Below are positions 1,116 through 61,008 of a DNA stretch of 64,000 bases, in pieces (position 1 is the first letter of the stretch; every line of letters starts with the position of its first letter). The notes under the pieces are model-generated. The model saw only the letters and a list, made by a program, of their open reading frames with translations. It was not told the origin of the DNA and made no database searches. The stretch comes from Octopus vulgaris (Eukaryota). The position numbers and the translations under genes are program-made. The stretch covers positions 19,592,001 to 19,656,000 of the forward strand of contig OX597814.1 of NCBI GenBank assembly GCA_951406725.2, given 5' to 3'.

Positions 1116-1185
1116 TGCAGCTGATGAAGACTAATCAAATTTACGATGACAAACGTATTTGAAGAGTCCGAAACCTAGGTACTGG
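1116..1185 (+). ncRNA. Type I hammerhead ribozyme motif (PLE/retrozyme-like)
   Basis: cag-CTGATGA(1121-1127)-a-gact..tcaaa..tacg/cgta..tttga..agtc-c-GAAA(1170-1173)-C-ctag-GTA-ctg; stem I cag/ctg, palindromic stem III loop CTAG, GUA site. Confidence 0.7.
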
Positions 1186-3199
1186 ATTATCCGATTCTGG
1201 GTTATCCATTTATATAATGTTCTTCCTGGAGATAAGAAAGCATTTTTTGTTTGCTGCCCTCACACATCTTTGCTAGTATATACACATAGAAGCTTTACTA
1301 TAGTGTCGTAAATGTATTGACTGCTATTTCTAGTAAACATTGGTGCTTTGTTGTACCGCTACTCCATATTCATATATATATATATAAAATTACCTGTTAA
1401 AGGTAGTTTTTCTTGTGATTAAATGTACACTATTATATATATATATATATATATATATATATATATATATATATATATACATATATATATATATATTAAA
1501 TTATATATTATATTATATTATATTATATTATATTATATTATACTATATTATATTATATTATATTATATTAAATTATATATTATATATTATATATATAGTG
1601 CAAAATTTCGAGGACACCAAGTGATGAATTATACAGCACACACACACACACACACACACACGTCTAATACATGAAGAAAAAATAACAGGAACGGTTTAAC
1701 ATCGAAGACATGGGATTAAAAATTTCTTTCGAATTCCAATTTAAAAGTTATGATTGAAATAGTCAGGCCAGTTTTTGTTCGGTCTATGTTTTTATATAAT
1801 TCAAATGTATATACATCATGCTCATTATTATTATTATCATTATTAGTGTTACTCTTAAGATTTTGTTATCGTTATTATTATTATTATTATTATTATTATT
1901 ATTATTACTGTTGTTGTTGTTGTTGTTGTTGTTGTTGTTGTTGTTGTGGTTTTTGTCGTTATTGTTGTTAATATTATTATTATCATAATATATATGTATA
2001 TATTTTACTTCTTATGATTCGAAATCATTTAATTTCACGCCTTTTCCAAAAAGTTTGTGACACACATTTATTACTTTCTGTAAATCTATGTGGCAGTTGT
2101 AAACGAAATATCTGCAAACATTTGTTTAAAATTGAAAAACGGGTTTTGAAATTTAGAAGCAAATCGAAAGATCTCCAAGAAACCACGAAAAAAACAAAAA
2201 ACTTTAAAAAAAAAAACTAAATGTCGAATGCAGGTAATAAAGAAGAAAGAATAAGTATATAACGGTTGGTATATTCGCGAAAGTTGCTCGTATGTGGAAT
2301 TGGTAGTTTTGAAGTGTGGAATCTCAGACTCACAGACAAAATGTAATTGACGTTAATGGGTTTTATATACGTAGTTACACACACGCACACACACATACAC
2401 ACACACAAGCATGTATATATATATATATATATATATATATATATATATATATATATATATATATATATATATATATATATATAATTATATATATATGTAT
2501 ATATATATATTCAAACTTTAGTTAACTACGTTGTAAATATGTGTGTATGTATGTATGTGTGTATGTGTGGTTTAATGTGTGATATTAATGTATATTTCAA
2601 TAACTTATGAAAAAAAATAAGTATTAAAATGAGATATAATTTAACCAGAAGTGCTCTTAAAATAAATATTTTTCTCATATTTATATTATACACATGTGCA
2701 AGCATACACATGTACACAGCTGCCTCACTATACACTCACTCACACTTACACAACACGAATACATAAGTATTTTCATGTATATATATATATACGTGTGCAT
2801 ACACACACACGTGCATATATATATATATATATATATATATATATATACATACACACATACACACACACACATATATATATATATATATATCTACATAATA
2901 TATTTAAACATACATACATGTATACATATCCATCTATTCATACATATATATATATATATATATTCATTTTCATGTTTTCATATTTTGCTATTGATATTTA
3001 TGATGTAAAACTGATTCATAACCAACATCGGTTGACAACGGTGAGTTATGACGTTGTAAAGATTTAAATTTGAAATATACCAACCAGTAAATAGGCATAG
3101 CATTCCAAAAACAAGTTTCAGTGCACACTGCTTTCTTGGCATATATAGATATATATATATATATCAACACTCAACCAACGTTATATGCATGCATATGTG

Positions 3200-3410
3200 C
3201 GTATGTGTTCTCTGTTTATCCTCTCTCTTTCTCTCTCTCTCTCTCTCTCTCTCTCTCTCTTTGTTTTCTTTTATTCCTTTCTGTTGAAGAGCGTAGGCTC
3301 GAAATGTAAAAGACTCTCTCACTTTCCCACTTTCCCGAGCGTCAAACTAATACACTCGCTTGTTGTTTATAGACCTGTCTTCGTCTTTCGTTTTTCTGTA
3401 AATTCCAACT
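3200..3410 (+). mobile_element. Short non-coding element with a CUGUNGA hammerhead-like motif (3277-3312); 3' end abuts (AT)n
   Basis: cttt-CTGTTGA-a-gagc-gtag-gctc-GAAA-tg-ta-aaag; homologous to 22990-23185, 26908-27313, 33134-33328 and 60856-61008. Confidence 0.7.
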
Positions 3411-4339
3411 ATATATATATATATATATATATATACATACATATATTGATATATATATATATATATATATATATATATATATATATATATATGATATATG
3501 ATATATATATATATGTGTGTGTGTGTATATATATACGTGTGTGTGTGTGTATGTATAAATATATATAGTGGATATATTGGATATTGTATAGTAATTTATT
3601 ACTTTAGTAAAATTCTACATATTTGTGTGCATACTGTTGCCTAAATCGATTCCCCAAACATGCTTTGCTTATTTTAGTGACGCCTGAGAGAAAATTTTAG
3701 TAACTGTTCTTCGTCGCGAACGACAATATGCAATCAGTCATTGGGCAACTACTCGTGAAAGTATCTAAGCGGAGAATTAAGATTTAAACGGATGAGTATT
3801 CTAATGACATTATGTTTTGGTAACGTACATTTTTGAAGACACAATGAGATAAAGACCTTTGAATTGCAGGTGTAAACCATGGAGAAATGGCAACTGAATG
3901 GGACAGAGAAGTCCATGATTTTATTTACCGGGTCCATGATTTTATTTATCGTCCTAGAAAAATTAATGATAAATCTGAATTCGGCAGAATTTGGGCTCAA
4001 AACACAGGTAGCCAATGCAGATACTTCAAGGAAAGTTAATATTCAGCGATCGAGCAATTATGGTAGGAATTAAGTAGGCTGTATAAAAAGGCATATAGAA
4101 TGTTTTTTTTTAATTTTCCACTATCTCTCTCTCTCTCTCTCTCTCTCTCTCTCTCTCTCTTCTCTTTGTCTCTGTCCCCGCTCTCTTCCTCTCCCTATCA
4201 AGAAAATGCATTCATACGTTCTTAAACGCATATATATATACACCTACACAGACGCGCGTCGAGTTGTATGCATGTATGTGTGTATGTATGTATGTATGTA
4301 TGTTTTTGTGTATATATGTATGGTTTTTGTCTATATAAC

Positions 4340-4914
4340 AGGCGCAAGAGTGGCTGTGTGGTAAGTAGCTTGCTTACCAACCACATGGTTCCGGGATCAG
4401 TCCCACTGCGTGGCACCTTCGGCAAGGGTCTTCTAGTATAGCCTCGGGCCGACCAAATCCTTGTGAGTGGATTTGGTAGACAGAAACTGAAAGAAGCCCG
4501 TCGTATATATATATATATATATATATAATACGTCGTATATATATATATATATATATATATACAATATATATATATATATATATATATATATAATATATAT
4601 ATATATATATATATATATATACATACATATATATATATATATATATATATATATATATATATATATATATATATATATACTAGTGTGTGTTTATGCTTGT
4701 GTGTCTGTGTTTGTCCCCCCCCCCCCAACATCACTTGACAACCGATGTTGGTATGTTTACGTCCCCGTAACTTAGCGGTTCGGCAAAAGTAACCGATAGA
4801 ATAAGTATAAGGCTTACAATGAATAGGTCCTGGGGTCGATTTGCTTGACTAAAAGGGCGGTGCTCCAGCAAGGCCGCAGTCAAATGACTGAAATAAGTAA
4901 AAGAGTAAAAGAGT
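4340..4914 (+). mobile_element. Full-length SINE family A (tRNA-like head, internal (TA)n/(TG)n, aaagagt tail)
   Basis: A-box-like tggctgtgtggt; degenerate B box ggatcagtccc; conserved body; tail gtaaaagagtaaaagagt. Confidence 0.92.
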
Positions 4915-5499
4915 ATATGTATGTTCTTTTCTGCTATTAATTATTTGTAGTCTCCCTGTAAAGAAAGAGTTTGTTTCTAACAAAGGTACAAAGCTCCATT
5001 GTATGTAACGAAAATGTCACAATTTTGAAAAGTCTTTCATATTTTTACTTGCAAATTTCCGCTTACATATTGCATTTGTAATGTATGTGTCCTTACGTCG
5101 TCTTAAATAACTTACAGGTGCCGTAGTTCTTATTCCTATCTTATTGGTAAGATATATTTTATGATGCGGTTTGAATAACGCTACGTTGGTAAGTAAAAGA
5201 TGTTACTCACATTTACAACTGAAGAAATAAACTGCATTCAGAATTTGACTGGATGACTCGGAATAATAGTAGAAGAAAACATTCAAAAAGAAATTTTTAA
5301 AATTCCTCTACGCTGTACATCTGATATTGTCAGTTCCATGTCATGTATTGCAAATATGTATGCATGTACGTATATATGTATATATGTATGTATATATATA
5401 TATATATATATATATATATATATATATATATATATATATATATATATATGTGTGTGTGTGTGTGTGTGTGTGTGTGTGTGTGTGTGTGTGTGTGTGTGT

Positions 5500-5810
5500 G
5501 GAGGTGCAATGGCCTAGTGGTTAGGGCAGTTGACTCGCGGTCAGAAGATCACGGTTTCGATTCCCAGACCGGGCGTTGCGTGTGATTATTGAGCGAAAAC
5601 ACCTAAAAGCTCCACGAAGCTCCGGCAGGGGGGTGCGAGGTGGCGACCCCTGGTGTACTCTTTCGCCACAACTTTCTCTCACTATCTCTTCCTGTTTCTT
5701 GAGTAACGCTGCGATGGACTGGCGTCCCGTCCAGCTGGGGGGAACATATACGCCACAGAAACGAGGAAAACGGGCCCATGAGCATGGCTAGGCTTGAAAA
5801 AGGCGACGTT
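5500..5810 (+). mobile_element. tRNA-derived SINE family B
   Basis: tggcctagtggttagggcag (A box) and ggtttcgattccc (B box); same head at 52128 and 60388; same gcgatggactggcgt..gtcca tail as 21760-22030. Confidence 0.88.
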
Positions 5811-5989
5811 CATTACGTTATATATATGTGTGCGTGTGTGTGCCTGTGCGTGTATGTGTGTGTGCACATATACATACATAAATATACACGTAAATACGCA
5901 TAAGATTGTGTGTGGTTCTTGCGGGATGTAGTTCATCCTTCTCCCACGCACATTTCCCAGTTGAAGTCAAACTCTTTCGATCGATTGAG

Positions 5990-60222: not shown

Positions 60223-60273
60223 AGCTTCTACAGGACTAGAACTGTTTCATTCAAGAGAAATCAGCAGGAAGCT
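60223..60273 (-). ncRNA. Type I hammerhead motif with 6-bp stem I and a full stem III; core CUGCUGA
   Basis: Reverse complement: agcttc-CTGCTGA-tttc-tctt-gaat-GAAA-cag-ttctagtc-ctg-TA-gaagct. Confidence 0.72.
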
Positions 60274-60387
60274 AGTTAACAAGAATTGTATTGGCATTTA
60301 TACATTTAGGCAGGTATATATATACATATATATATACATATATATATATATATATATATATATATGGGTGTATATATGTATATGTAT

Positions 60388-60572
60388 AGGCATATGGCCT
60401 CGTGGTTAGAGCAGCGGACTCGCAGGGTCGAGGGATCGCGGGTTCGAATCTCAGACTGAGCGATGTGTGTGTTTATGAGCGAAACACTTAAGCTCCACGC
60501 GGTTCCGGCAGAAGGTAATGGCGATCTTTTGCTGACTCTTTCGCCACAACATTCTCTCACTCTTTCCTCTTA
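60388..60572 (+). mobile_element. SINE family B, 5' part
   Basis: tggcctcgtggttagagcag and gggttcgaatctc boxes. Confidence 0.85.
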
Positions 60573-60585
60573 CATCAGCGTGAGT

Positions 60586-60777
60586 ACCGCTGGCGATTTT
60601 TTTTCCTCTGTCTTCCCTTCTCGGGATCTTTCCTTCTCCTATGTTTCCGACGAAGAGCTCCGCTCGAAACGTTAGACCCTCTTTCTTCCCTTCTTTCCTG
60701 AGCGTCCAATAATACTTTATTTGTTCCACGTCCTCGCGTTGTTGTATTTTTTTGTGTTTTCTTGTTTGGATTAACTA
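60586..60777 (+). mobile_element. Short element with a minimal hammerhead motif (60643-60677), core CCGACGA
   Basis: gttt-CCGACGA-a-gagc-tcc-gctc-GAAA-cg-tt-agac. Confidence 0.7.
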
Positions 60778-60855
60778 CACACACACACACACACACACAC
60801 ACACACATATATATATATATATATATATATATATATATATATATATATATATATA

Positions 60856-61008
60856 GGGAGAATTCACAAAAAACAAAAGACAAAGACAGATGGTGTAGAC
60901 AACAAACAGATGTATTAGTATAACGCTTGGGAAGTGAAAAAGCTTTTAACGTTTCGAGCCTGCGCTCTTTCACAGAAAGGAACACAGAAAGATACAAGGA
61001 GAGAAAAT
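60856..61008 (-). mobile_element. CUGUNGA-family hammerhead-like element copy (motif 60943-60979)
   Basis: Reverse complement: cttt-CTGTGAA-a-gagc-gcag-gctc-GAAA-cg-tt-aaaag. Confidence 0.68.

Follow-up and report, generated by a model that had tools for sequence, protein, structure and literature searches.

Hammerhead ribozyme motifs in an Octopus vulgaris genomic region: probable terminal repeats of Penelope-like elements on TA microsatellites

Introduction

The DNA analyzed here is a 64,000-nucleotide stretch of the Octopus vulgaris genome (GCA_951406725.2, contig OX597814.1, forward-strand positions 19,592,001 to 19,656,000; called the window below), in which a sequence-only reading had listed 14 sites of type-I hammerhead ribozymes (HHRs) next to (TA)n microsatellites and ascribed them to a non-autonomous retrozyme system. 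Very likely, the majority of these hammerheads represent 3′ terminal repeats (pseudo-long terminal repeats, pLTRs) of several coding families of Penelope-like elements (PLEs), of Neptune type and of the Hydra clade. These would have been left on TA as 5′-truncated or inverted ends, probably through target-primed reverse transcription; three short families without an open reading frame, called B, A2, and C, likely borrow the same enzymes. Linkage to open reading frames (ORFs), fixed 3′ ends, two alternative 3′ ends that define a tail, variable 5′ ends, head-to-head pairs, and a bias for TA are all directly seen. The kind is already known: these are real PLE-end hammerheads of a described type, occurring in new families, and not a separate retrozyme system.

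Results and Discussion

Hammerhead motifs and their families

The window has a GC content of 35% and is dense in microsatellites, and the genome comprises 2.8 Gb in 227 contigs. The motifs were searched with a type-I descriptor consisting of the core, a stem II of at least 4 bp, a self-complementary stem III, and a stem I of at least 4 bp, both in the window and in a genome sample of 600 kb (60 pieces of 10 kb at round coordinates over 27 contigs). The window contains seven matches (1121+, 3281+, 14046+, 19589+, 39144-, 48292+, and 60647+), against none in each of 20 dinucleotide shuffles of the unmasked sequence. The sample contains 21, two of which resemble chance, against 1, 0, and 1 in three shuffles. 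All seven window matches have the G10.1–C11.1 pair, though the descriptor does not demand it.

The other seven listed sites (cores 20928-, 23110-, 27038-, 33199+, 39186+, 60267-, and 60975-) fail the descriptor, each by a private change at a core or stem position, and the whole motif is found in other copies of the same family; at 60267-, stem III is also larger than the descriptor permits. All 14 sites are hence hammerhead-bearing repeat copies, seven by descriptor and seven as decayed family members, with cores starting up to ~45 nt from where the sequence-only reading had placed them. They fall into nine families (A, A2, B, C, D, E, F, G, and H). The description of these as unrelated in sequence needs amending, as five sites belong to the single family A, and A2 is its sister. 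For every family, 40 of 40 genomic matches were scored, out of 1,000–3,600 candidates each. A BLAST search with natural reference copies yields 16 pieces in the window (five of A, four of F, and one each of A2, B, C, D, E, G, and H), compared with 44 in the sample, the window being ~3.4 times denser. Extrapolated from the 600 kb, the genome would hold ~2 × 10^5 PLE-end pieces and ~9 × 10^4 descriptor-grade hammerheads, in line with the earlier view of high-copy, TA-targeted minimal hammerheads of PLE type.

Chance occurrence in an AT-rich, microsatellite-rich genome can be given practically no weight. It is true that 36% of random positions in the window have (TA)4 no farther than 200 nt away, and that Rfam, the check suggested earlier, named no hammerhead family among the window matches listed (150 of 366, dominated by microsatellite "miRNA" matches, as the repeat search was by microsatellites) and gave no hit at the gathering threshold for four family loci, so that the support for the motif comes from the descriptor and not from Rfam. 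The shuffles (7 versus 0 in the window, 21 versus 0–1 in the sample), the G10.1–C11.1 pairs, the scored family matches, and the TA-docking counts given below nevertheless refute it.

The hammerhead-bearing and related pieces of the window are as follows.

1060..1371, forward strand: monomer of family B, a tandem unit of 433 nt that lacks an ORF; HHR core 1121, with cleavage predicted after 1181; ends on TA
3254..3409, forward strand: family A 3′ end (putative Neptune-type PLE pLTR), core 3281; ends on TA
13111..13187, forward strand: tRNA-like head of family C, A/B-box-like by eye; no tRNA gene called by ARAGORN in seven family loci
13990..14195, forward strand: family C body, core 14046; 3′ end not on TA
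14350..14651, unstranded: second head-to-head pair of family F ends, decayed; absent from the sequence-only reading
19505..19944, forward strand: family D 3′ end on TA, core 19589, with a long stem II; Hydra-type endonuclease upstream in one of four long loci
20626..20981, reverse strand: family E 3′ end (putative Hydra-type PLE), core 20928; ends on (ATT)n
22990..23111, reverse strand: decayed family A 3′ end, core 23110
26908..27312, reverse strand: family A 3′ end of ~405 nt, core 27038; TA on both sides; extra base at the cleavage triplet
33132..33328, forward strand: decayed family A 3′ end, core 33199; ends on TA
39013..39278, unstranded: family F head-to-head inversion pair (putative Hydra-type PLE ends), cores 39144- and 39186+; outer ends both on TA
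48150..48400, forward strand: family G 3′ end (putative Hydra-clade PLE), core 48292; ends on TA
60137..60312, reverse strand: family H pLTR end with tail (putative young Hydra-clade PLE), core 60267, which has a change private to this copy; flanked by TA on either side
60579..60775, forward strand: family A2 short unit, sister of A, core 60647; no linked ORF found
60855..61011, reverse strand: decayed family A 3′ end, core 60975; faces A2 across one TA tract

In addition to these families, the sample contains at least four hammerhead families that are absent from the window (L153:285-, L164:328-, L176:8781-, L183:2271+, and L200:4775-), most with TA close downstream.

Families joined to coding sequence

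Six of the nine families (A, D, E, F, G, and H), accounting for 11 of the 14 sites, have longer genomic copies that extend upstream into an ORF for a reverse transcriptase (RT) or a GIY-YIG endonuclease (EN). As a group they have fixed 3′ ends, are truncated to varying extents at the 5′ side, and show tails and inverted head-to-head copies; together with the ORF linkage, this identifies them as 5′-truncated PLE ends. The claim that the elements carry no ORF thus holds for the window pieces and fails for these families, and the suggested check for the same termini on PLEs is answered by 3′ ends joined to RT/GIY-YIG ORFs, albeit frameshifted ones (e.g., L061, L277, and L285).

Family A has a single sharp 3′ end and variable 5′ ends, with the EN end of an ORF upstream in 9 of 30 loci. 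Locus L061 comprises a truncated upstream pLTR, a frameshifted RT–Zn-finger–GIY-YIG ORF, a 3′ untranslated region (UTR) of ~900 nt, and a second pLTR on TA, and its two hammerheads are 4384 nt apart. The ORF has the DKG and CX4CxxC motifs and matches Pfam RVT_1 and GIY-YIG with E values of 0.002 and 0.005, respectively, both under the curated cut-off. The source of family A would accordingly be sought among Neptune-type PLEs, but the combination of DKG and CX2-5CxxC with GIY-YIG at the C terminus fits Nematis equally well. In family A (loci L001–L060), a successful family, core position 6 departs from the usual A, being U in 68 of the 83 copies tallied from the top variants.

The copies of family H (L246–L259 and L277) are 99% identical, suggesting a very young PLE, probably of the Hydra clade. 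In L277, an inverted pLTR is followed by a pLTR that passes straight into the ORF, so that its last ~70 nt correspond to the 5′-UTR "tail". In L061 and L277 alike, the pLTR placed before the body is a 5′-truncated 3′ end. In the family H hammerhead, stem I measures 6 bp and stem III 4 bp, and stem II has a U–U pair at its base; the notion that the site noted at 60223- is a core without stems is thereby ruled out. For family G, an ORF lies upstream in L141, L284, and L285, the last having RT and EN in one ORF ~2.1 kb before the G end. For family E, EN is found upstream in 4 of 14 loci, and RT and EN fragments lie upstream in L283 and L282. RT motifs and GIY-YIG occur together in L061 (A), L285 (G), and L277 (H); E has fragments of both, and D and F have EN only.

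The ORFs of L277 and L285 have RWx (RWR and RWA, respectively), DKT, CxCX5C, and CxxC..E..N..CxH, and no CX2-5CxxC, while the L065 ORF shows the linker and EN motifs. By these motifs, assigned without a tree, the sources of G and H would belong to the Hydra clade and those of E and F would be Hydra-type. A PDB sequence search returned nothing meaningful, and a protein homologue search returned 670 homologues, nearly all without names. A head-to-head pair of a further Neptune-type PLE, with open frames of 775 and 839 aa, lies near a G copy (L293:2884-8382).

Head-to-head inversions and an optional tail, giving two 3′ ends, are seen in F, G, H, B, D, E, and C. The palindrome at 39013–39278 was also considered as a fixed, viroid-like element of two polarities, since all 40 matches to it are palindromic. 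This follows from the query being itself a palindrome: a single-arm query gives variable inversion points and many single arms, and the palindrome is an ordinary PLE inversion with variable breakpoints.

Several observations weigh against reading the hammerheads as PLE ends. The ORFs in L061, L277, and L285 are frameshifted and no intact one was found; at E ≤ 0.001, Pfam gave no hit for three ORFs. The coding link of F amounts to EN upstream in 2 of 30 loci (69–76% to the L065 ORF), that of D to one of four long loci, and another D copy has more than 2.5 kb of non-coding sequence upstream. Moreover, 13 of 24 printed family A loci begin at a 5′ hot spot 75–85 nt upstream of the core, which, taken with the near-fixed start of A2, suggests that many short copies may derive from dedicated short templates. 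When nine window motifs were folded as monomers, a hammerhead-like shape was obtained only at 1121 and partly at 27038; such poor folding is expected for motifs proposed to act as dimers or with protein. Stem covariation, also looked for, is limited to one stem I pair in 11 sequences, with stem II invariant. At this pair, a compensatory change of both bases sets A apart from A2 (in 4 of the 10 distinct rows), which counts in favor of the reading; one of 500 shuffles was as good, although the rows are related. The count covers A and A2 only, because family C failed to align with them.

TA docking

Ten of the 14 window sites run directly into (TA)n, and there are four exceptions: 60647+ enters (AC)n and then TA, 23110- enters (CT)n and then TA, 20928- enters (ATT)n, and 14046+ enters non-repeat DNA. 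Of the 31 genome-sample pieces outside family C, 21 have a (TA)≥3 tract that begins no more than 12 nt from their aligned 3′ end, compared with 7.0% of 20,000 random positions, which confirms the enrichment; a recount by hand, excluding four pieces that fall short of the 3′ end, gives 23 of 27. The search-derived loci, which favor intact copies, lie on TA in 28/29 (A, with 29 of 58 loci scored), 18/19 (D), 22/24 (G), 14/14 (H), 39/48 (F), 14/24 (B), and 7/14 (E) cases. TA targeting does not extend to family C, with 1 of 13 sample pieces and 2 of 19 loci on TA.

That the TA tracts are tails made by the elements through slippage or untemplated addition, rather than targets, appears quite improbable. 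Such tails would account for the 3′-side excess among the sample descriptor matches, where (TA)≥4 lies within 200 nt downstream in 15 of 21 and upstream in 7 of 21 (chance, 20.6%), and a short TA is indeed present in the element where reverse transcription starts. However, in 3 of 220 loci the 3′ end splits the internal TA tract of a short interspersed element (SINE) and lies between the SINE halves, indicating that the TA pre-existed as a target. Unrelated families are also stacked tail-to-tail in one TA tract (60579–61011, L009, and L141), and many copies have TA on both sides. A control with SINE 3′ ends (4 of 85) is invalid because the reference stops short of the SINE end. The SINE-like repeat with the internal (TA)n tract occurs at 4338–4893 of the window and in ~19 more copies; with 100 of its 5′ halves in 600 kb, it has a very high copy number and is a source of many TA targets.

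Insertion mechanism

Taking the hammerheads to be PLE ends, a mechanism of four steps can be envisaged. The RT/GIY-YIG protein would first nick (TA)n. The nicked end would then likely pair with a UA-rich spot of 2–7 nt in the RNA, priming reverse transcription at one of two internal sites, the end of the pLTR or the end of the tail. Copying would mostly halt early or invert, such that only the last 150–450 nt, including the hammerhead, are inserted. Finally, the hammerhead would likely trim read-through PLE transcripts, as a dimer or with the help of protein.

The pairing step is suggested by the continuation of the element at its 3′ end, which matches the TA phase, by eye, over about 7 nt in A, 5 in B and E, 4 in H, 3 in D and F, and 2 in G, so that short pairing likely helps priming. 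On the other hand, the only in-vitro study of a PLE reports that a Poseidon element primes without homology (Frangieh et al., PMC11167929), which argues against generalizing this step. The same work describes the tail as the product of two RT start sites, with reverse transcription beginning inside the RNA just past the pLTR, and reports insertion even by hammerhead mutants, with RNA left uncut serving as the main template.

In the present families, the cut site lies ~30–350 nt from the 3′ end, and the hammerhead is therefore carried along in truncated inserts. It is likely dispensable for insertion, because the inserted copies span the cut site. None of 13 family A pieces in the sample starts at the cut site (position ~100; one edge piece excluded), which fits the report of an uncut template (PMC11167929).

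Families B, A2, and C

In family B, the sequence past the 3′ end re-enters its own start, giving a unit of 433 nt; in locus L324, 1.75 such units are present and the cut site is crossed two times. In the 10 B loci inspected, the upstream sequence is the tail of the unit itself or an inverted copy, and never an ORF. One alternative is that every family is a non-autonomous retrozyme, spreading as self-cleaved, circular RNA with the aid of PLE enzymes: the ORF-less, head-to-tail unit of B speaks for it, neither A2 nor C has a linked ORF, and the sizes agree with retrozymes of 170–400 nt (PMC7229834). For the set as a whole, we nevertheless consider this unlikely. Six of the nine families join coding sequence; a zero-mismatch pattern finds one exact hammerhead-to-hammerhead B dimer genome-wide (a lower bound), and arrays were not seen; and the motifs are of the minimal PLE type, whereas retrozymes are described with canonical type-I HHRs in tandem (PMC7229834). 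The anatomy given by the sequence-only reading stands, but the proposed non-autonomous system shrinks to at most three of nine families (B, A2, and C), excluding A, E, F, G, H, and, by one locus, D. Apart from B and C, tandem units were not seen in any family, no pattern search having been aimed at them. RNA records of these families were absent among the holders listed. Contigs from three presumed-RNA runs match parts of unit B, with some joints going back ~1 unit; these were discarded as evidence for expression or circles, as comparison run X3 shows the same pattern.

Family A2 is a near-fixed unit of 200–235 nt: 39 of 40 matches begin at query nt 10–12, and farther upstream the copies retrieved (19 of 19) have at most ~40 nt in common. 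No A2-linked ORF was found. A Neptune-type fragment in L346 was rejected as such, because it lies ~870 nt downstream of A2 and looks like a separate insertion. The copies of ~200 nt (A2 and many of A) could be "strong-stop" cDNAs, begun by RT in the tail, close to the mRNA 5′ end, and terminated by run-off where transcription starts within the pLTR. Such an origin from ordinary PLE mRNA would make a separate non-autonomous element unnecessary, and it refines, and is compatible with, the PLE-end explanation. The fixed A2 starts, the 5′ hot spot of family A, and the internal RT start just past the pLTR (PMC11167929) speak for it; the missing A2 ORF, a start site deduced from sequence alone, and the broad 5′ ends of F, G, and H speak against it. 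On balance, we regard it as a serious possibility that falls somewhat short of even odds.

Family C consists of a tRNA-like head, (AAT)n, and a hammerhead body. All seven heads in the sample are followed by a C body, and 10 of 13 pieces are in head-to-head pairs; one partial tandem occurs (L290). The 3′ ends cluster at ~150 and ~195 and land on non-repeat DNA. The head-to-head pairs with two 3′ ends are a PLE signature. Putative A and B boxes were recognized by eye against the consensus, and ARAGORN called no tRNA in the seven loci. As for a coding partner, an upstream EN match on the same strand was found in one of 20 loci only (L215, E = 8e-5, 1 kb away). We tentatively suggest, as a combined reading that is somewhat more likely to fail than to hold, that C is a SINE with a tRNA head and a hammerhead, for whose copying Penelope machinery is used and not that of a long interspersed element (LINE), that the ~200-nt copies of A and A2 are strong-stop cDNAs mapping the PLE transcription start, and that short micro-homologies of UA in the RNA prime the targeting of TA. 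The last part contrasts with the homology-free priming of a PLE in vitro (PMC11167929). Copies of family C would number in the tens of thousands, the majority of them as head-to-head pairs that carry a PLE tail. In the literature searched, chiefly open-access texts with supplements excluded, no precedent was found for a tRNA-SINE mobilized by PLEs.

Comparison with known systems

Masses of single minimal HHRs from truncated PLEs, with pairs on opposite strands, have been described, with an extra base at 9/10.1, a palindromic stem III, and weak cleavage as dimers (Cervera & de la Peña 2014, PMC4209133). The octopus motifs agree in being type I, in the G10.1–C11.1 pair, in the palindromic stem III, in the extra base between 9 and 10.1 in most families, in occurring as many families per genome, and in being mostly single motifs from truncated PLEs with opposite-strand pairs. 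They differ in number, ~9 × 10^4 by extrapolation compared with 2,000–9,000 there, in the U6 of family A, and in the 4-bp stem III and the U–U pair of family H (PMC4209133). The last family resembles in turn the axolotl HHR_Amex2 in its stable stem III and in the U–U pair at the stem II base (PMC7229834).

Hydra PLEs carry HHRs and insert in (TA)n, and PLE tails and inversions are likewise known (Craig et al. 2021, PMC8557442). The present ORFs share with the Hydra clade the C-terminal GIY-YIG, DKT, the CxCX5C linker, and CxxC/CxH round E and N, in addition to the HHR and the (TA)n insertion. In a motif comparison without a tree, they differ from it by RWR/RWA in place of RWK, and 3′ UTRs of up to ~2–3 kb make the elements exceed the <3 kb quoted for that clade (PMC8557442). 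L061 shares with Neptune and Nematis, which are not separable here, DKG and CX2-5CxxC before a C-terminal GIY-YIG, pLTRs, and a microsatellite bias (PMC8557442).

Retrozymes are tandem ORF-less units with circular RNAs (PMC7229834) and have been argued to derive from pLTRs. Family B resembles animal non-LTR retrozymes (PMC7229834; Li et al. 2026, 10.64898/2026.07.22.740005) in its ORF-less unit of ~430 nt, its type-I HHR, and its PLE-like ends. It differs in being mostly a monomer or fewer than two units, with PLE-like tails, inversions, and TA docking, and in being known here from DNA alone, while the other families are not tandem units. Judged by organization, only B would approach a retrozyme. 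Family C is similar to the schistosome Sm-alpha and Sj-alpha elements (PMC6765202) in having a Pol III-type (tRNA-like) head followed by a hammerhead and no ORF; unlike these, it is dispersed, not tandem, and mostly forms head-to-head pairs with two 3′ ends and an (AAT)n linker.

As context, an octopus repeat paper lists recently active Penelope families, and the word "ribozyme" does not occur in its available part (PMC13282606). The same literature search found no earlier report of octopus PLE hammerheads, and the supplementary files S1/S2 of Craig et al. 2021 may already list such families.

Other features of the window

The following features lie beside those above.

13275..13832, forward strand: putative LINE 3′ fragment within the (AAT)n linker of the family C copy
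42382..43296, unstranded: broken Hydra-type PLE ORF remnant, part inverted; tblastn E = 6e-12 to a Hydra-type ORF

The first is presumably of Dong/R4 type, by its C-terminal motif. It is part of nested insertions at 13111–14195 and itself contains an inverted-repeat element of ~215 bp (13428–13642). The second confirms the PLE remnant noticed earlier near 42.5–43.3 kb, and this analysis ties it to none of the listed hammerheads. A broken LINE RT fragment, which we take to be RTE-like, is located at 62654–63738; 44406–44717 is presumably the remnant of a mariner-type transposase; and 43932–44031 is an assembly gap of 100 N.

Conclusions

The novelty that is left lies in a possible PLE-driven tRNA-SINE, family C, in the fixed 5′ ends of A2 and A, and in possible priming by micro-homology. 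The main value of the finding lies in the resource, which by extrapolation amounts to ~2 × 10^5 PLE ends and ~9 × 10^4 recognizable hammerheads, including those of the young family H. This copy number is large enough for a statistical mapping of RT start sites, inversion points, and 5′ stops, and such mapping bears on how PLEs make their pLTRs, tails, and inversions and on the role of the hammerhead. B, A2, and C may represent stages at which PLE ends turn into non-autonomous retrozymes or SINEs.

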